A stretch of DNA of 26,528 bases from a virus. Lineage: Duplodnaviria; Heunggongvirae; Uroviricota; Caudoviricetes. Numbering within the stretch: position 1 is the first letter of the stretch; every line of letters begins with the position of its first letter. The notes below the pieces were generated by a model. That model was not told the origin of the DNA and ran no database searches. It saw nothing but the letters and a program-made list of their open reading frames with translations. Location of the stretch: the IMG/VR virus record IMGVR_UViG_2563366972_000005, positions 1-26,528 of that record, one strand, 5' to 3'. Positions 1,307-18,388 of the stretch are shown piece after piece. Made by a program: the position numbers and the translations under genes.

Positions 1307-3790
1307 TTAAAAATCAACCGGATTCGGGATCAGTTTTTGTATCGTGGCTGTAACGTATTTTGCCTGGTGACGGGCATCATCCAGCGCATTGTGGCGCACG
1401 CCTTCAAATGGAATAACTGTTCTGGCATCAAAGTCGATTGTTTTTCCCAGCTCAACGATTGTGCGTACATCGCGATCGTTGTAGTAGCGCCACGGGCAGG
1501 GGATGTCCAGACGTTCGTATGAGGTGCGCAAAATTGCGTTATCGAAAGTTGCACCATTACCCCATACCTGAACGAATTTTTCATCTGAGTATTCGTTGAT
1601 GAACTCCCGAAACCGCGAAAGGGCATCCTTCAGTTTTACCTGGTCTGTTAAAATGGCAGCTCTGGCTTCACTGGACTGCTTCAGCCACCATTCGATGGTT
1701 CCACCGTCAGGAACAGCCCCTGTATTCATTGCGTCAGTCAGACTGATAACGATATAAAATACTGGCCCGATTTCCCCTGTTTGTGGGTCGAAGAAAACCG
1801 CACCAATAACCACGATGGGCGCATTGGTGTTGGTTCCCATTGTTTCAAGGTCGATCATCAGGTGATACCACACTCTGCTGGTGGATGTGATAACGTGATG
1901 ACCGTTCACCGCAATTAAGGGATCTGCCGTCTCGCCAGTTTCATTATCGCTGGCGTGGTCCTGAGCGCTGCCAGCATTCTCCTTGTGTGGATGTTCAGCG
2001 CCTTCCATTTCCTTCGGATCATTTTCCTGAACTTCAACCTGATTCTCTTCATCGAATGTTTCCTGGTATGTTGCGTCGCCCATCACCGCGCCACAATCAG
2101 GGCAGTTGCCGTCGCCGGTCTGACCGCAGGCGGTGCAGACTTTTTCCGCTTCCTGTTGCGCTACTGGCTCAGGTTGTTTCGTTTCTGGCTCGTTTTGTAA
2201 CGCATTTGGGCTGTTTTGTTCCGCTTTCTGGTCGTTCTGTTCCGTTTCTTGCTGGTTCTGATTCACTGAATCGCGGGTTTCAATCCCCTTCACCCATTTC
2301 GGATCATTCGGGTCGCTAATCCCTGCAACAAATTCACCACGTGATACAGCAAGCAACTGATTGGCGTCAGGCTGGCTGATATTGGCTGCCTGCATAATTT
2401 TGTTTACTTCGTCAGCGGTAACTTTTACCGGCTCCGGTTGTGCGGTCGTGTCAGATGCACCAGTATTTTGTTGTGAACCTGAGTATGTACCGTTTTTGCG
2501 GGCAAAATATTCTTCTTTCGTGATTTCAGTAGCCCCTGTAGCCAACGCCTTATTCAGACCAGAAAGTTTGTTTGCACGACCATATTTTTCGCCATCCTTA
2601 TCGGTGAAGAGGAAGTAGAACGGCCCCTCACGCTCTACAGATGGTTCAGTTTCCAGCGCGCTTTCATTTTTTTGGGTATCAGATACTTCAGTTTCCACTG
2701 CGTCAGTTTCTGGTACTGGCGACGAGAGAGTATTAGTTGTGCCCTGATTTGTTCCTTCGTCATCTTCAAACACGCCCTTTGTAGCCAGGTATTCAGTGAT
2801 GTATTTGTTCAGTGCCATGGGATCTTTGTGAATGTCGATCGGACGTTCACGGACAAGGCCAAAAATAGTCTGGCGGCTGTAGCGAATCGCATCGGGTTGT
2901 TTGCGCATTGATGCGGAAATGCGCTTCCAGTCTTCGCGATCTTTGTCGATAACTTCATTTTTTGCCCAGCGATGGATGCTGCCGTCAATGTTTCCGGCAT
3001 TAATATCGCCAGGCCACAGAGCGTAGGCCAGTTCTTCATCCAGCGTTTTCCATGTCTGCTTGTATTCGCGACGAATGGCGGCAGTGGCGGGGTTGATTTT
3101 TCCTGCTGAGTTTTCAGTGTGCTGCCGGTTGACTCTGGCGCGGGCAAGATCAACAACAGACGTGTATTTTCCAGTCTCTTTGCGCTCTGCGTCCTGCCGT
3201 TTTTTCCAGTTACGTAATTCGGCCTGAATGTCCGGCCATTTTGCGCCAGGCTTACATTTATGTTTAACCCATCCGATAGCGAACAGTTTGCGTTCCGGAT
3301 ACATAGCGTTAATTTCTGGTGTTTTCATCAGTGCTTCAACGATATGCCCGTCGAATGTCGCCACGTCTTCCTGCAGTAACTCCTGTGCGCTAATCACCAT
3401 ATCAACGGTGATGTTTTCGCATGTACCGAACTTAACCAGGACTGCGTTCTGCACTTCAGGGGACAGCTTGTCAAAATTGACGTTCATCGGATCGGATTCT
3501 GGTTCGACCGGGACAAAAGAGGCTGACTCTTCATCCCAGCGGTTTTCCTGCATATATTCGGTATCCCATGAGTCGATAGCAGGGCGGGGCATGCCGGGTT
3601 TATCCTCGCAGACAAGAAATTTATAAGCGCAGTCCTGAGCAGCCGGATATTGCTCCAGGAATTGCCAGGTAAATTTGGCACGGGCGCGGCGTTCGTCACC
3701 GGCTTCAATGGCAGTGGCTACAGCGACTGCACCTTCTTCCTTTATTGCCTGTTCGTCCGGAATGGCGGCGCAAATAAAGACTTTACTCAT
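1307..3790 (-). CDS. Large early-region protein with C-terminal DEDDh-type 3'-5' exonuclease domain (of the kind often annotated exodeoxyribonuclease VIII in prophages)
   Basis: 827 aa ORF; C-terminal ~190 aa carry exonuclease motifs (MIDLETMG..., ...HNALDDA...); central CxxC...CxxC zinc-ribbon-like motif (CTACGQTGDGNCPDCG); acidic/Gln-rich low-complexity linker; start preceded by GAGG. Confidence 0.8.
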   Translation of the reverse strand: MSKVFICAAIPDEQAIKEEGAVAVATAIEAGDERRARAKFTWQFLEQYPAAQDCAYKFLVCEDKPGMPRPAIDSWDTEYMQENRWDEESASFVPVEPESDPMNVNFDKLSPEVQNAVLVKFGTCENITVDMVISAQELLQEDVATFDGHIVEALMKTPEINAMYPERKLFAIGWVKHKCKPGAKWPDIQAELRNWKKRQDAERKETGKYTSVVDLARARVNRQHTENSAGKINPATAAIRREYKQTWKTLDEELAYALWPGDINAGNIDGSIHRWAKNEVIDKDREDWKRISASMRKQPDAIRYSRQTIFGLVRERPIDIHKDPMALNKYITEYLATKGVFEDDEGTNQGTTNTLSSPVPETDAVETEVSDTQKNESALETEPSVEREGPFYFLFTDKDGEKYGRANKLSGLNKALATGATEITKEEYFARKNGTYSGSQQNTGASDTTAQPEPVKVTADEVNKIMQAANISQPDANQLLAVSRGEFVAGISDPNDPKWVKGIETRDSVNQNQQETEQNDQKAEQNSPNALQNEPETKQPEPVAQQEAEKVCTACGQTGDGNCPDCGAVMGDATYQETFDEENQVEVQENDPKEMEGAEHPHKENAGSAQDHASDNETGETADPLIAVNGHHVITSTSRVWYHLMIDLETMGTNTNAPIVVIGAVFFDPQTGEIGPVFYIVISLTDAMNTGAVPDGGTIEWWLKQSSEARAAILTDQVKLKDALSRFREFINEYSDEKFVQVWGNGATFDNAILRTSYERLDIPCPWRYYNDRDVRTIVELGKTIDFDARTVIPFEGVRHNALDDARHQAKYVTATIQKLIPNPVDF

Positions 3791-13011: not shown

Positions 13012-13386
13012 ATGCGTATAGAGTTTGTTTTGCCTTACCCGCCGACGGTGAACACCTACTGGCGTCGTCGTGGCAGTACATATTTTGTATCAAAAGCCGG
13101 TGAGCGTTATCGCCGGGATGTGGCACTTATTGTTCGCCAGCAGCGACTGAAATTAAACCTGTCCGGAAGGCTGGCGATAAAGATTATTGCAGAGCCACCG
13201 GATAAGCGCCGTCGTGACCTGGACAATATTCTGAAAGCTCCACTGGATGCACTGACGCATGCGGGACTACTCATAGACGACGAGCAGTTTGATGAAATTA
13301 ATATTGTGCGCGGTCAGCTCGTTCCAGGTGGGCGGCTGGGCGTGAAGATTTACGAAATAATGCATGACGGGCAGGTCCAAAAATGA
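13012..13386 (+). CDS. rusA: RusA Holliday-junction resolvase (crossover junction endodeoxyribonuclease)
   Basis: 124 aa; YPPTVNTYWRRRG...RRRDLDN...LIDDEQ... parallels E. coli RusA (WPPSNNRYYR...RRRDLDN...WLDDAQ). Confidence 0.9.
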   Translation: MRIEFVLPYPPTVNTYWRRRGSTYFVSKAGERYRRDVALIVRQQRLKLNLSGRLAIKIIAEPPDKRRRDLDNILKAPLDALTHAGLLIDDEQFDEINIVRGQLVPGGRLGVKIYEIMHDGQVQK

Positions 13387-14204
13387 AACTGGAAGATTTA
13401 CCGAAATACTATTCTCCAAAATCGCCAGGCCTGACTGATGCGCCCATCTCGACGTCAAAAGATGCGCTGAGTATCACTGATGTAATGGCTGCGCAGGGTA
13501 TGACACAGAACCGGGCTGAGATGGGATTTTCCGCGTTCCTGGGAAAAATGGGCATTAGTATGAATGACAGGATGCGGGCAACAGAATTACTGGCAGATTA
13601 TGCATTAAGTCGGTGCGATCGCGTCGCGGCGTTAAGGAAACTCCCGGCAGAAATAAAACCGGCAGTGATGCGCATTATGGCTTCGTATGCTTTTGAGGAT
13701 TATGCCCGTAGTGCAGCGAGCAAAAAGCAGTGTCCTTGTTGCCGTGGGGAAAAATTTATTGAAAGCGAAGTTTTTACAAACAAGGTTCTGTATCCGGATG
13801 GTAAGCCGCCAGTATGGGCAAAGTGTACAAAAGGGGTGTATCCGTCTTACTGGGAAGAATGGAAAAAAATCCGGGAGGTGGTGAAAGTTTTCTGTCCTGA
13901 ATGTAAAGGGAAGGGGGAGATTTCGACCGCCTGTAAAGACTGCCGTGGGCGTGGTGTTGCCATTCATCGTGAAGAGTCGGAAAAACGGGGTATGCCTGTA
14001 ATCAGGAACTGCCAGCGTTGTGGCGGTCGGGGCTATGAAAGACTACCATCAACGGAGGCATTTAATGCCATACGCAAAGTGACGAGTGCTATCACGCTTG
14101 ATACGTGGAAAAAATCAGTGAAACGCTTTTACGATACGTTGGTGGTTCGGTTTGACATTGAAGAGGCATGGGCGGAGCGGCAGTTAAAGAGGGTAACGCG
14201 ATAG
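13383..14204 (+). CDS. Late-gene antiterminator Q-like protein with DnaJ-type CxxCxGxG zinc-finger repeats
   Basis: 273 aa; start overlaps rusA stop (ATGA); four CxxC motifs (CPCCRGEKF, CPECKGKGE, CKDCRGRGV, CQRCGGRGY); immediately upstream of a pR'-like promoter and tR'-like terminator. Confidence 0.65.
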   Translation: MKLEDLPKYYSPKSPGLTDAPISTSKDALSITDVMAAQGMTQNRAEMGFSAFLGKMGISMNDRMRATELLADYALSRCDRVAALRKLPAEIKPAVMRIMASYAFEDYARSAASKKQCPCCRGEKFIESEVFTNKVLYPDGKPPVWAKCTKGVYPSYWEEWKKIREVVKVFCPECKGKGEISTACKDCRGRGVAIHREESEKRGMPVIRNCQRCGGRGYERLPSTEAFNAIRKVTSAITLDTWKKSVKRFYDTLVVRFDIEEAWAERQLKRVTR

Positions 14205-14209
14205 TGTTG

Positions 14210-14237
14210 TTGATTTTTCCCGAATCTGTGGTAAATT
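14210..14237 (+). promoter_or_regulatory. pR'-like late promoter (TTGATT -16 bp- TAAATT)
   Basis: -35/-10 hexamers read from sequence just downstream of the Q-like gene; followed ~50 nt later by an intrinsic terminator, as for lambda pR'-qut-tR'. Confidence 0.45.
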
Positions 14238-14443: not shown

Positions 14444-15163
14444 ATGGGTATGGATGACAGCACTCTGCTGAGGAACTCTTCACTTTTTATTGCTTATATG
14501 GGCTGTCTTGGATGGGGAAGCGCTTATTTCTATGGATGGGGGACTTCCTTTTACTATGGCTTTCCATGGTGGATCGTCGGGGCTGGCGTTGATGATGTGG
14601 CTCGAAGTTTGTTTTATGCTGTGAGCGTTATCGTTATATTCCTTACTGGATGGGGAGTAGGTATTGTTTTCTTTTTAGGCATAAAACAAAAAAACAATAT
14701 ACAGAATTTGAGTTTTATCAGACTTTTTCTGGCAATATTGCTGCTTTTTATTCCGCCTGTTCTGGAGTTTTCGGTAATTCATCAGCACGTTGAGCCAGAT
14801 GTGCTGTTTTTTTGTGTTATTGCTGCCTTTACAATTACGCTTTTTGTCAGGTCAGGAAGAAGACTTATTTCAGTCAAATGTTTTTCGGAAGTGTCTTTTA
14901 TTCGCCATCACCGAATTGAGTTTATTATGGCTGGATTCATGATTTATTTCTGGACATTCTCTCTTATTGCCGGTTGGTATAAACCCCAGTTTAAGAGGGA
15001 ATATCAGACGATCCACTATGAGAATACCTGGTATTACGTTCTTGCACGCTATGATGATCGTCTGGTTTTATCGAAATCGTACAGTAATGGGAGTTCTGCA
15101 TTCGTTATACTTAATAGCGGGCAGATTGATGACTTTGAAATTAATGTAGTCAGAGTTCGTTAA
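14444..15163 (+). CDS. AT-rich integral membrane protein (about 5 predicted TM helices plus ~60 aa soluble C-terminal domain), function unknown; first gene of the late operon
   Basis: 239 aa; hydrophobic segments SLFIAYMGCLGWGSAYFYGW, LFYAVSVIVIFLTGWGVGIVFFLGI, FIRLFLAILLLFIPPVLEFSVI, VLFFCVIAAFTITLFV, FIMAGFMIYFWTFSLIAGWY; markedly lower GC than flanking phage genes. Confidence 0.65.
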   Translation: MGMDDSTLLRNSSLFIAYMGCLGWGSAYFYGWGTSFYYGFPWWIVGAGVDDVARSLFYAVSVIVIFLTGWGVGIVFFLGIKQKNNIQNLSFIRLFLAILLLFIPPVLEFSVIHQHVEPDVLFFCVIAAFTITLFVRSGRRLISVKCFSEVSFIRHHRIEFIMAGFMIYFWTFSLIAGWYKPQFKREYQTIHYENTWYYVLARYDDRLVLSKSYSNGSSAFVILNSGQIDDFEINVVRVR

Positions 15164-15285
15164 TATTGCCTGAGTAACTTTCTGTTGACCGCTCAGATTC
15201 TTTTATCATGTGTAGGCCAATATGCAGGATTTAATCAGGGTAGGGTATTGCAGAGCTAAACTGGCATAAGTATTATTCCGCATAT

Positions 15286-15361
15286 GGCCCTTTAGCTCAG
15301 TGGTGAGAGCGAGCGACTCATAATCGCCAGGTCGCTGGTTCAAATCCAGCAAGGGCCACCA
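15286..15361 (+). tRNA. tRNA-Ile2 (anticodon CAU, lysidine-type, reads AUA), ileX-like
   Basis: Cloverleaf folded by hand: acceptor GGCCCTT/AAGGGCC, anticodon loop CTCATAA, T-loop TTCAAAT, encoded CCA; near-identical to E. coli tRNA-Ile2. Confidence 0.88.
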
Positions 15362-15362
15362 A

Positions 15363-15439
15363 CCGCCACTAGCTCATCAGGAAAGAGCGTCAACCCTTTA
15401 AGTTGAGAGTGCGAGGTTCGAGTCCCCGGTGGCGGTCCA
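15363..15439 (+). tRNA. Noncanonical tRNA-like gene (anticodon loop CCTTTAA: UUU at 34-36 but C at position 33; A.C mismatch in T-stem)
   Basis: Acceptor CCGCCAC/GTGGCGG, U8, D-arm GCTC/GAGC, T-loop TTCGAGT, encoded CCA; anticodon stem TCAAC/GTTGA. Confidence 0.55.
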
Positions 15440-15441
15440 GT

Positions 15442-15517
<76 letters not shown>

Positions 15518-15520
15518 TAT

Positions 15521-15595
<75 letters not shown>

Positions 15596-16147
15596 GCATT
15601 TGAAACAAGCCTTATTGTATCGTGGCACTGGCGTATTTTTTATTACGTGGAGGTTGTTTTAAAAAGACATTCTGTTCTCTGGCTATGATTGGAGGTCGGT
15701 TGTAGTCACAGTGCTGATTTTTTACAGCAGCAGAATGGTGCATTATCGGTGGAGATTTTGTATTTCCTGGCAGGGTCGGTGATGCATCATTCTGGTGTTG
15801 TAAACACGTTGCAGAGGCGTTCCTCAGGGCGAAGGTAATTAAGAGTTGGTTTAGTGGGAAATCACAGTATCCATACAGGACGGAATACTTCGGGAGGTGC
15901 TCGACGCCCAGGTTTTATAACAATCAAAAAATTCATCTCTTGCATTGACCAACCTTCTTCATGGCGGTTTTTTTTGGTAATTGATTGAATTGCATACTGA
16001 ATAATCATTGCATCGTTAAAATTATAACTAATTCCGAATATGCTGTGCTTGCTTATTGTTAGTTTGCTTACATTTCTGTATCTTGCTGCACCGCAGGATT
16101 CCCCTGTAACGACGATTGTATGATGAATCATTTAAACTTTGTAATTT

Positions 16148-16179
16148 GCCAGCCAGTCTCTGGTGGCTGGTTTTTTTTT
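16148..16179 (+). terminator. Rho-independent terminator (CCAGCCA...TGGCTGG hairpin plus T9)
   Basis: Read from sequence; terminates rightward transcription of the unexplained region after the tRNA cluster. Confidence 0.6.
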
Positions 16180-16232
16180 GCAAGGTGTTCCAGTAATTCT
16201 GTCGTCAGGCTGGATTCCCACAGAACAAAAAA

Positions 16233-16314
16233 CCGTCACTAACTCATCGGGTAAGAGTGCATAACGCGTATTGTTGTTTTGTGGTGCGGGGTTCGAGTCC
16301 CCGGTGACGGTCCA
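16233..16314 (+). tRNA. tRNA-like gene / probable pseudo-tRNA, paralogous to the gene at 15363, with expanded noncanonical anticodon region
   Basis: Intact acceptor (CCGTCAC/GTGACGG), D-arm (ACTC/GAGT), T-arm (CGGGG-TTCGAGT-CCCCG) and CCA, but 28 nt between D- and T-stems instead of 23; best anticodon stem ATAAC/GTTGT gives loop GCGTATT. Confidence 0.45.
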
Positions 16315-16342
16315 TTTGTAACGGTAAATATACTTTTAACAG

Positions 16343-16363
16343 GCTCGCTTCGGCGAGCTTTTT
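16343..16363 (+). terminator. Rho-independent terminator after the tRNA-like gene
   Basis: GCTCGC-TTCG-GCGAGC hairpin followed by TTTTT. Confidence 0.6.
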
Positions 16364-16683
16364 GTATGAGTTCAACCCGGTTTATATTGGAGAAAAAAGG
16401 GCGCGGCTGTCGGATTAAAGCCGCGGGACAAAGTCCATGAAGAAGAATAAGTATTGGCCCCCTTCTGGGGACATGTTCATATTACTAAGCATTAAAAATG
16501 GTTTAAATCCTCAGATTAACTTTAATTTCAGATAAGCTTTATTTCATTTCTTCGCGCCACGCCCGGCGCATATCAAAAACCACAGAGCCTTTCAGGGGTG
16601 AGCTTACGGGATGGTCAGTGTGACTTTCTCTGTGGGCTGGTCACCCCCGTGCGGAGGCTCATCCACCAAAAGGAAAAGTCACG

Positions 16684-17109
16684 ATGTTTGGTATTTTCAA
16701 AAAGAAAACCCGCAAGGCCATTACTGAAGTGAAGAAAATGGAGAATCGCGATGCGGTGGAGGCAACCGTCTGGGGTGCGTATTCCATTGCATACGCTGAC
16801 GGCACCTGTGACGCGAAAGAAATCGCGGTACTGGAGAAAACCATTGCAGCACTTCCTTCTTTTGCGCCGTTCTCCGGTGAGATTGCCCAGATGAGTGCCA
16901 ATATCCGCGCCCGTTATGAAGCGTCACCGCGTTCTGCCAATGCCGAAGCTCTTCGTCAGCTGGCTGATGTCGCCGGTACTGATGACGCGGTGAATGTGCT
17001 GTGCCTGTGTCTGGATATCGCTGACCAGGACGGCATTGGTCCGGATGAAGAAGCACAGCTCAAGAAAATTGCACAGGCGTTGCAGTTGCCGCTGGAGCAG
17101 TACCTGTGA
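16684..17109 (+). CDS. TerB-like protein (tellurite-resistance TerB family fold)
   Basis: 141 aa; pattern resembles E. coli TerB throughout (N-terminal AVEATVWGAYSIAYADG..., C-terminal DGIGPDEEAQLKKIAQALQLP versus TerB DGNFDDDEKSAVREIARSLGFDP); AAGGAAAAG RBS. Confidence 0.7.
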   Translation: MFGIFKKKTRKAITEVKKMENRDAVEATVWGAYSIAYADGTCDAKEIAVLEKTIAALPSFAPFSGEIAQMSANIRARYEASPRSANAEALRQLADVAGTDDAVNVLCLCLDIADQDGIGPDEEAQLKKIAQALQLPLEQYL

Positions 17110-17258
17110 AAAGTGCGCGCCTTGTGCTGGCTGCCATCCTGCTGTTTCTGGTAGTGGCGGTGGATTTCACCGGACGGCTGATGTCGGTGCTGGCAGATGG
17201 TGTGCTGGTGGCGATGGCGCTGGTTGTGCTCCGACCTTTACTGCGCAAATCTGAATAA
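17106..17258 (+). CDS. Small membrane peptide (50 aa, VKSARLVLAAILLFLVVAVDFTGRLMSVLADGVLVAMALVVLRPLLRKSE); not in the ORF track
   Basis: Hand-translated; GTG start overlaps the TerB-like stop (GTGA); two hydrophobic segments; followed by tandem hairpin terminators. Confidence 0.3.
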   Translation: MKSARLVLAAILLFLVVAVDFTGRLMSVLADGVLVAMALVVLRPLLRKSE

Positions 17259-17310
17259 CACCACACAAAAGGCATCTGCGGGTGCCTTTGACGGGGTGTT
17301 GTTTTTTTAC

Positions 17311-17334
17311 GGGCCGCTGGTGGCCCTTTTTTCT
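17311..17334 (+). terminator. Rho-independent terminator (GGGCC-GCTGGT-GGCCC plus TTTTTTCTTT), preceded by a second hairpin at 17271-17290
   Basis: Read from sequence; separates the TerB-like pair from the lysis cassette. Confidence 0.6.
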
Positions 17335-17350
17335 TTACAGGAGAAAATGT

Positions 17351-17743
17351 ATGTCTGAACCCTTATCCGGTTCTGGTACAGCCGCTGCGCTCGGCGGGGC
17401 GACGGTATTCGGACTGTTTACCGGGACGGATTTCGGGATTGTGTTTGGGGCGTTCGCCGGAGCGTTGTTTGTGGCAACGATGCCGCAGGCGCTTTCAGCC
17501 TGGCGGGTGGCGGCACATTTTCTGGTGTCGTTCATTGTCGGCGTGCTGGGAGCGCGCGTGCTGTCAGCCTGGATTGCAGCAAAAACAGGTTATGACGGTA
17601 CATCGGCGGATGCACTGTGTGCGGTGCTGGTATCGGTGGTGTCGGTAAAGATTCTGTCGTTTATCCACCAACAGGATATCGCATCACTGGTGTCCGGCCT
17701 GTTCTCCCGCTTGCGTGGCGGAGGAGGCGGCAATGTTAAGTAA
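17351..17743 (+). CDS. Holin-like membrane protein
   Basis: 130 aa from ATG 17351 (AGGAG 7 nt upstream); Gly/Ala-rich TM helices (GATVFGLFTGTDFGIVFGAFAGALFVA...); first gene of the lysis cassette. Confidence 0.65.
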   Translation: MSEPLSGSGTAAALGGATVFGLFTGTDFGIVFGAFAGALFVATMPQALSAWRVAAHFLVSFIVGVLGARVLSAWIAAKTGYDGTSADALCAVLVSVVSVKILSFIHQQDIASLVSGLFSRLRGGGGGNVK

Positions 17744-18008
17744 CCTTCCCGGATTGCTGAATGTGGCGTTATGCACGGTTATCGTGCTGACGCTCTTTTT
17801 TTATCGCCGTCGTGATTCCAGACATAAACCGCTGATGTCATGGCTGGCCTGGCTGTTGATGTTGCTTTATGCCTTAACGCCTCTCAGCTATCTGTGTGGT
17901 CGCCCGTTAGCAACGGGCTGGCTGGAAGTGTTTTTTAATCTGTTGTTCTGCGTGCTGGTAATACGTGCTCGCGGGAACGTTTCAAAAATCCTTTCATCCC
18001 GGAGGTGA
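17733..18008 (+). CDS. Second lysis-cassette membrane protein (holin/antiholin-like)
   Basis: 91 aa from ATG 17733 (GGAGG upstream); 2-3 hydrophobic helices; lies between holin and endolysin. Confidence 0.55.
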   Translation: MLSNLPGLLNVALCTVIVLTLFFYRRRDSRHKPLMSWLAWLLMLLYALTPLSYLCGRPLATGWLEVFFNLLFCVLVIRARGNVSKILSSRR

Positions 18009-18010
18009 AC

Positions 18011-18388
18011 ATGTCGGGTAAATTCAGATTCAGTCGTCGGAGCGAGAAAAATCTGGAGGGCGTCAAACCACAACTGGTTGCCGTGGTTCGCCGTGCGCTG
18101 GAACTGACGGAGGTTGATTTCGGTATTACGGAAGGCCTGCGCAGTAAGTATCGCCAGAAACAGCTGGTCGCGGAAGGGAAAAGCCAGACCATGAACAGCC
18201 GCCACCTGACCGGTGATGCGGTGGATGTTGTGGCCTACATTGGTAGCCAGGTGTCATGGGACTGGCCTCTGTACGAGAAAATCGCGCAGGCATTTAAGCA
18301 GGCTGCCGCAGAGCTGGGGACTGCCATCGAATGGGGCGGGGACTGGAAAACACTGAAAGACGGACCTCACTTTCAGTTGAAACGCTGA
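18011..18388 (+). CDS. Endolysin, peptidase M15 family (L-alanyl-D-glutamate / D-Ala-D-Ala peptidase fold)
   Basis: 125 aa from ATG 18011 (GGAGGTGA upstream); motifs GITEGLRS...Q...G.S...SRHLTGDAVDV and WGGDW are typical of M15 peptidase endolysins. Confidence 0.82.
   Translation: MSGKFRFSRRSEKNLEGVKPQLVAVVRRALELTEVDFGITEGLRSKYRQKQLVAEGKSQTMNSRHLTGDAVDVVAYIGSQVSWDWPLYEKIAQAFKQAAAELGTAIEWGGDWKTLKDGPHFQLKR

Follow-up and report, generated by a model that had tools for sequence, protein, structure and literature searches.

TerB has been described as a membrane-associated or amphitropic protein, and its complex with TerC as the core unit of ter operons. These operons inhibit phages and make cells resistant to pore-forming colicins, and ter-operon phenotypes have been reported to depend on terC, terD and terZ. 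TerB domains recur in Bunzi, Shango and Dionysus, three anti-phage systems for which 'membrane surveillance' has been proposed, and Dionysus acts on jumbo phages. TerB is now a recurring, and mechanistically opaque, part of anti-phage systems; that TerB domains occur in such systems had been noted in the sequence-only reading of the DNA analysed here. Phage P1 carries a TerB-like gene, tciA, followed by tciB and tciC. The tci names are stated as 'by homology' only in the P1 GenBank annotation, and later papers on P1-like elements keep the homology-based tellurite label. All three P1 genes were non-essential by CRISPRi, about half of one P1-like subgroup lacks the tci operon, and tciABC counts among the eight hypervariable regions of P1-like elements. 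Beyond this CRISPRi dispensability, we found no experiments on TciA or TciB function in the searchable literature.

The window analysed in this study is a whole 26,528-nt stretch of tailed-phage DNA (IMG/VR record IMGVR_UViG_2563366972_000005), in which a TerB-like gene is followed by a gene for a small membrane peptide. The sequence-only reading could not match this pair to a described system, a claim that is refuted by phage P1 TciA (85% identical), by the DUF3927, PHROG 632 and PHROG 1470 families, and by RefSeq annotation in hundreds of E. coli prophages. Judged by sequence, the pair can securely be called the already named and widely annotated phage tciA/tciB, which received its first annotation in P1, here in a two-gene form of P1 tciABC. 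RefSeq labels the same arrangement 'tellurite resistance TerB family protein | DUF3927 family protein | putative holin', and proteins identical or 98-100% identical to TciA and TciB are already public. When the pair and its flanks were used as a 1-kb query, 514 of 5426 complete E. coli genomes matched, 142 of them covering at least 80% of the query. The pair itself is thus already known, and as a catalogue entry it adds nothing.

The tciAB pair and its protein families

The two genes and their junction are as follows.

16684-17109, plus strand: tciA, 141 aa, ATG start; soluble all-helical TerB-family protein with a basic conserved N-terminus, MFGIFKKK
17106-17258, plus strand: tciB, 50 aa, GTG start; hydrophobic DUF3927 peptide
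17094-17109, plus strand: translational-coupling junction read from the sequence, with GGAG at 17094-17097, an 8-nt spacer, and GTG at 17106 overlapping the tciA stop codon TGA at 17107-17109

The two ORFs share the tetranucleotide GTGA, and this overlap would have TciA and TciB made in a fixed proportion. TciA scored 32.8 bits (E=9.3e-8) on the Pfam TerB model (PF05099 / COG3793; cut-off 24.4) and matched PHROG 632 ('tellurite resistance') at 9e-65. A TciA-family profile built from 100 full-length members aligned end to end with the NMR structure of Klebsiella pneumoniae TerB, 2JXU (E=8e-30). The AF2 model of TciA is all-helical (pLDDT 92.4), and TciA belongs to the helical fold family shared with solved TerB-type structures. 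The assignment to TerB, which the sequence-only reading had offered as open to refutation by profile searches, thus survived both profile and fold comparison, and the standalone TerB-fold protein was borne out by the Pfam, 2JXU-profile and fold searches. The family is small, with 173 clusters at E<=1e-3 in an exhaustive search. Its consensus contains the acidic motif ADG....E...L twice, residues G40, E46 and E122 are at least 90% conserved, and the hydrophobic-plus-polybasic N-terminus MFGxFxKK is conserved in the family.

TciB scored 53.5 bits against the Pfam DUF3927 model (PF13064; cut-off 25) and matched PHROG 1470 ('TciB-like') at 2.5e-24. The family alignment gave the motif VDFTxxxxSxLxDGxLV...(W/R)P, in which P44 never varies and D20 and D31 hardly do. 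The peptide had been described as two-helical. Hydropathy supported this description insofar as two hydrophobic stretches are separated by DFTGR, but the AF2 monomer is a single continuous helix spanning residues 2-47 (pLDDT 92.9). Searches of Pfam and PHROG gave no holin-family match for TciB, DUF3927 being the only family found, and no solved structures resembling it were found. A 'mini-TerC' hairpin was also considered for TciB and rejected, since aligning the TciB family with a phage TerC in hhalign returned a probability of 0.04.

Pairwise dN/dS relative to the window copy was 0.02-0.24 for tciA (five distant pairs had saturated dS) and 0.19-0.86 for tciB, remaining below 1 wherever dS was computable. 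These values, together with the Pfam and PHROG matches, indicate that tciA and tciB are more than chance ORFs. By profile comparison, TciA is securely assigned as a full-length TerB homologue and TciB as a DUF3927 membrane peptide.

Genomic setting, expression and exchange of tciAB

The window is a lambdoid prophage with exonuclease, dicB-type and replication genes, RusA, and a Q antiterminator at 13383-14204. After Q come a 239-aa membrane protein, four clear tRNA genes, tciAB, the lysis genes, terminase, portal and a ClpP/capsid fusion. A Phage_holin_8 ORF starts at 17351, 93 nt past tciAB, followed by a Phage_holin_3_7 ORF (17715-18008) and an M15 peptidase, the endolysin (18005-18388). That the pair occupies a cargo slot of the late operon, immediately ahead of the lysis genes, as had been proposed, was borne out by this gene order and by relatives in which the slot is empty or refilled. 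In a close relative (L003, CP076274), the post-Q gene leads directly to the holin and tciAB is absent; a second prophage (L004, CP076279) has Stx2a and subtilase (SubAB) in the slot and keeps leftover sequence from the 3' end of tciA and the 5' end of tciB; a third (L002, CP025856) has tciAB there. The slot between Q/tRNAs and holins is therefore a cargo-exchange site, and tciAB is exchangeable cargo between the Q/pR'/tRNA genes and the lysis cassette. As in a moron, the pair is present or absent among collinear relatives and is followed by a double terminator at 17256-17332. It lies just upstream of holins in most of the 80 viral loci examined.

Several observations concern the neighbourhood of the slot. 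The remnant in the Stx2a/SubAB prophage (L004, 22205-22527) is a decayed cassette consisting of the tciA 3' end and a truncated tciB only. In an IMG/VR contig (L017, 4423-4560), a deletion has removed the tciB 3' end and probably the terminators too, leaving tciB near the holin start. The 239-aa multi-TM protein at 14444-15163 belongs to PHROG 1521 and has a weak AbiC-like PADLOC match (E=0.004); its ORF lies directly after Q and the pR'-like promoter and is conserved in phage 434 and in Stx-phage relatives. ARAGORN called an 82-nt tRNA-Val(aac) at 16233-16314 that the Rfam tRNA model did not match, and it is probably a pseudo-tRNA or a false call. The tRNA genes of the window lie at 15286-15595, and tRNA genes adjoin tciAB in unrelated phages too, namely P1/P7, JLK-2012, Erwinia Caitlin and Pseudomonas phiK7B1.

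Outside the lambdoid phages the pair is found in quite different settings. The GenBank annotation of P1 places tciABC downstream of the C1-operator-controlled Pban promoters. In N4-like phages, tciAB lies in apparently early regions and adjoins dUTPase and MoxR-like genes; Erwinia jumbo phages have a TerB-like gene and a small hydrophobic ORF at the genome start. In some prophages (L010, L012, L013), the pair is beside cI-like/HTH repressor genes, so that expression in lysogens is possible there. An esterase gene follows tciAB in PPyecE and JLK-2012. Given the settings in P1, N4-like phages, Erwinia jumbo phages and some prophages, tciAB is a mobile accessory cassette that is not tied to lysis genes. 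Note that two host labels in this set look doubtful. PP818812.1, 'Actinobacillus phage vB_Apl-pPE4', is 94% identical in nucleotides to this E. coli-type lambdoid region, with a TciA identity of 98.6%, and the contig of L010, labelled Pseudomonas lundensis, has an enterobacterial-type TciA. The latter contig also carries, adjoining tciAB at 2893-3774 on the minus strand, a 293-aa ORF with a TerB-resembling motif, 'ADGIVNDAEVLYL'; a fragment of this ORF, when searched, had no Pfam match.

The following features bear on expression of the pair.

16148-16171: second upstream terminator-like hairpin, from terminator scan and RNA fold
16341-16360, plus strand: nearest upstream terminator-like hairpin, closing the tRNA region 324 nt 5' of tciA
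16558-16683, plus strand: conserved tciA 5' leader, from sequence conservation and consensus fold
17256-17332, plus strand: two tandem intrinsic-terminator-like hairpins between tciB and the holin, from terminator scan and RNA fold

The downstream terminators begin at the tciB stop codon, the first hairpin (17256-17301) being followed by U7 and the second (17311-17326) by U6. Together they fold at -34 kcal/mol (z=-3.87), and none of 200 shuffled sequences was equally stable. The two upstream hairpins gave z values of -3.5 and -2.8. The total number of terminator-like sites in the region, 9 as compared with 5.9 +/- 2.6 in shuffles, was not above chance. The pair had been described as bracketed by terminators on both sides. 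This is correct for the downstream pair, but the upstream hairpins are 320-530 nt away, outside 16684-17334, with the conserved leader in between.

A sigma-70 promoter scan of 16360-16684 found no site with 9/12 matches, and a lenient scan before tciA gave only weak 8/12 sites outside the conserved leader, none of them convincing. A pR'-like promoter is located just after Q, at 14210-14237. Since no promoter of its own was found for the pair and terminators lie on both sides, tciAB would be transcribed by Q-antiterminated late read-through from the pR'-like promoter near 14210-14237; such Q-dependent read-through is most likely, being the most economical account of tciAB transcription here.

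The leader is predicted to form an 86-nt hairpin (16588-16673) in which CCUUU at 16588-16592 pairs with AAAGG at 16669-16673, covering the tciA Shine-Dalgarno sequence. The consensus fold of 21 distinct sequences has 32 pairs, with 96% of cells paired as compared with at most 53% when the pairing was slid. Five pairs show compensatory changes, a number reached by 3 of 500 shuffles; the covariation is modest and the sequences are closely related. The leader is conserved even before a tciA allele that is only 43% identical at the protein level. The hairpin may gate tciA translation by covering the Shine-Dalgarno sequence, and it could be either a translational gate or a processing site. A riboswitch comparable to the Mn riboswitch of TerC/Alx genes was considered for the leader and rejected, because an Rfam E-value scan of 15000-17500 matched tRNAs alone and returned no family for the leader.

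We examined how regularly the two genes occur together. In 93 of the 95 close loci with a readable tciA 3' end, a DUF3927-type ORF begins at the stop codon of tciA, overlapping it as CTGTGA (-4) in 90 loci and as TGATG/TAATG (-1) in 3; of the two exceptions, one is disrupted and one is a remnant. Distant phages were sampled one by one. Even where the TerB-like protein has just 30-45% identity, the next ORF scores above the DUF3927 cut-off; the examples are P7, two virulent N4-like Salmonella phages (SP-058 and SP-076), Pseudomonas phiK7B1 and Pantoea LIET2. The peptide that follows the TerB-like gene of Erwinia jumbo phage Caitlin scores 16 bits, which is below this cut-off. The coupling of a TerB gene to a small membrane peptide is thus upheld by the overlap kept in 93 of 95 loci, and the conservation of the small ORF with the TerB-like gene, on which the sequence-only reading had staked its proposal, extends from these close loci to distant temperate and virulent phages.

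The pairing has departures. Phages 434 (L107, 2941-3099) and 2B8 (L109, 1441-1599) have a DUF3927 TciB without tciA, and in Pseudomonas phage AF the same overlapping position after the TerB-like gene is taken by a different single-TM ORF. The lone TciB of 434 and 2B8 lies directly after a membrane protein 57% identical to the product of window ORF 14444-15163. In the virulent N4-like Vibrio phage BUCT194 (L105, 1-1926), a TerC/Alx gene stands between two TerB genes and there is no DUF3927 peptide; by its predicted gene content, this locus is a phage-borne TerB-TerC unit.

Within the cassette, tciA is exchanged while its surroundings are kept. Between the window and PPyecE_EH1910 (L098), the leader and the first 25-30 nt of tciA are 86-100% identical and the tciB core 76-90%, while the tciA body (window 16708-17100) has only 26-66% nucleotide identity. 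Between P1 and P7 (L001/L100), tciA is replaced and tciB nearly unchanged, with a conserved flank on the tciB/tciC side. The same replacement beside a nearly unchanged tciB is seen between SP-076 and SP-058 (L097/L104), where the flanks are conserved on both sides. In three independent phage pairs, therefore, tciA is a swappable allele (about 35-45% identical) between conserved flanks, and this mosaicism suggests diversifying or conflict-type selection.

Proposed function and alternatives

We tentatively propose, by analogy with TerB and TerC, that TciB is the membrane partner of TciA and that their complex protects, or keeps watch on, the inner membrane of the cell occupied by the phage; this is our preferred reading, held at somewhat less than even confidence. 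TciB would reside in the inner membrane and serve there as partner of a peripheral, amphitropic TciA, much as TerC of ter operons does for TerB. The complex would buffer or watch the state of the inner membrane during phage development. The expected phenotypes would resemble the 'Phi' and 'PacB' traits of ter operons, namely fewer successful superinfecting phages, less action of pore-forming colicins, and no premature membrane collapse. The cassette would then be an accessory fitness module, and neither a tellurite pump nor lysis machinery.

The idea of a membrane partner draws on the TerB literature together with three features: a membrane peptide coupled to TciA, a TciA N-terminus that is hydrophobic and polybasic, and carriage by obligately lytic phages. 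Partnership is supported by the overlap in 93 of 95 loci, by the pairing in distant phages, and by BUCT194, where TerC/Alx accompanies TerB and TciB is missing. The obligately lytic carriers, the P1 position downstream of Pban and the lack of a convincing sigma-70 promoter before tciA point to a role in the lytic phase, and the P1 CRISPRi dispensability together with the loss in about half of one P1-like subgroup points to an accessory nature. However, TciB without TciA in 434 and 2B8, and the other small ORF in phage AF, count against the partner model. The tciA alleles of about 35% identity beside near-identical tciB (P1/P7, SP-076/SP-058) argue against tight co-evolution of an interface, and late lambdoid expression is an odd time for exclusion, which counts against protection. 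The possible expression in lysogens where the pair adjoins repressor genes also counts against this reading.

It is unlikely, in our estimate, that the pair serves in counter-defence, with the phage TerB (together with TciB) mimicking, titrating or jamming host TerB-based membrane surveillance, as in ter Phi, Bunzi, Shango or Dionysus, and so averting abortion of the infection. TerB is a shared, sensor-like component of several defence systems, including one directed at jumbo phages, and a TerB-like gene with a small hydrophobic ORF is found both near the genome start in Erwinia jumbo phages and in N4-like phages, whose copies lie in apparently early regions. The swapping of ~35%-identical tciA alleles in three phage pairs is the pattern expected in an arms race, and tciABC is hypervariable among P1-like elements. 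Nevertheless, the genes of this lambdoid phage are in the late transcript, too late for most defences, and they resemble none of the PADLOC models, among which the TerB proteins of Bunzi and Shango should be found according to the 2022 paper, so that close mimicry is not evident. It is likewise doubtful that TerB/DUF3927 is a widespread phage module in an arms race with TerB-based membrane immunity, acting in counter-defence or in phage-versus-phage exclusion, with TciA as the swapped specificity part and its translation gated by the leader hairpin. Abortive infection or exclusion expressed in the lysogen, by a TerB sensor and a small membrane effector laid out like lambda RexA/RexB or Dionysus DinB/DinC, is quite unlikely. 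The pair is also carried by obligately lytic phages, which speaks against a defence system that solely protects lysogens; the P1 genes are in a C1-controlled lytic operon, and in the window neither a promoter nor a PADLOC match was detected for the pair. Moreover, at 50 aa TciB is very short to act as a pore-forming effector, and nothing here corresponds to the third gene of Dionysus. These points stand against the repressor genes beside the pair in L010, L012 and L013, the moron-like layout flanked by terminators, and the resemblance of a TerB plus membrane-protein architecture to Dionysus.

The position 93 nt upstream of two holin genes, which recurs in most of the 80 viral loci examined, and the nature of TciB as a small membrane peptide would suit an antiholin-like or holin-modulating pair that is functionally part of the adjacent lysis cassette and adjusts lysis timing. 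This is improbable in view of the two terminators between the pair and the holins, the same lysis cassette without the pair in L003, the esterase gene after the pair in PPyecE and JLK-2012, the annotated neighbours in P1, N4-like phages and Erwinia Caitlin, which are not lysis genes, and the failure of TciB to match a holin family. Literal tellurite resistance, or division inhibition, is very improbable: its homology with terB and the gene names used for P1 and in RefSeq speak for it, but the P1 names were given by homology, the terC, terD and terZ genes that ter phenotypes reportedly need are all missing from the window, and the leader showed neither a riboswitch nor a metal-responsive element. 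The automatically propagated 'tellurite resistance' label for tciA is probably misleading.

With one TerB protein and one 50-aa peptide, tciAB is the simplest possible TerB unit, and it is present in temperate and virulent phages of Enterobacterales and Pseudomonas. It therefore offers a small, genetically tractable model for TerB action at the membrane.

Comparison with described systems

P1 tciA-tciB-tciC (AF234173; terB-upf69.4-upf69.6 in P7) resembles the window pair in that a DUF3927 TciB directly follows TciA with a stop/start overlap, tRNA genes adjoin, and the genes are dispensable accessory cargo. However, the overlap is TGATG in P1 and GTGA in the window, and the two TciB peptides are only about 50% identical. 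The window lacks tciC, which encodes a 35-aa single-TM peptide, and tblastn gave no TciC match in it. The context also differs, P1 having the C1-controlled ban operon and the window a lambdoid late cargo slot with terminators.

Lambda bor and lom are the classic morons. Compared with these and with stx as cargo of the Q-to-lysis slot, tciAB lies in the same slot as Stx2a/SubAB of L004 and is flanked by terminators, but no promoter of its own was found, and its product is neither a toxin nor a virulence factor.

With the terZABCDE(F) operon, whose TerB is represented by K. pneumoniae 2JXU, the pair shares full-length homology, the helical fold, the duplicated ADG..E...L motif and a membrane partner encoded alongside. 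Unlike that operon, it is phage-borne, terC, terD, terE, terZ and terA are absent from the window, and the partner is a 50-aa peptide without detectable similarity to TerC. A tblastn search for TerC gave no match in the window, and the annotation of the homologous regions L002-L004 lists no ter genes.

Neither TciA nor TciB matched PADLOC-DB 2.0 at E<=1. Membership of Shango or Bunzi was rejected, since there was no PADLOC match, the partner genes are absent, and the neighbours are tRNA and lysis genes; in particular, the helicase or ATPase partners of Shango are missing. Membership of Dionysus was rejected by comparison with its described gene content. Dionysus has three genes, DinA (MAEBL plus TM), DinB (TerB-like) and DinC (a 4-TM pore-forming toxin), whereas the window pair has two, with a 50-aa partner and neither a 4-TM pore-forming toxin nor a MAEBL-like protein. 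In contrast to Bunzi, Shango and Dionysus, tciAB consists of two genes, is carried by phages, and occurs in virulent phages as well; what it has in common with them is a TerB-type protein accompanied by membrane protein(s), for which the proposed role is membrane surveillance.
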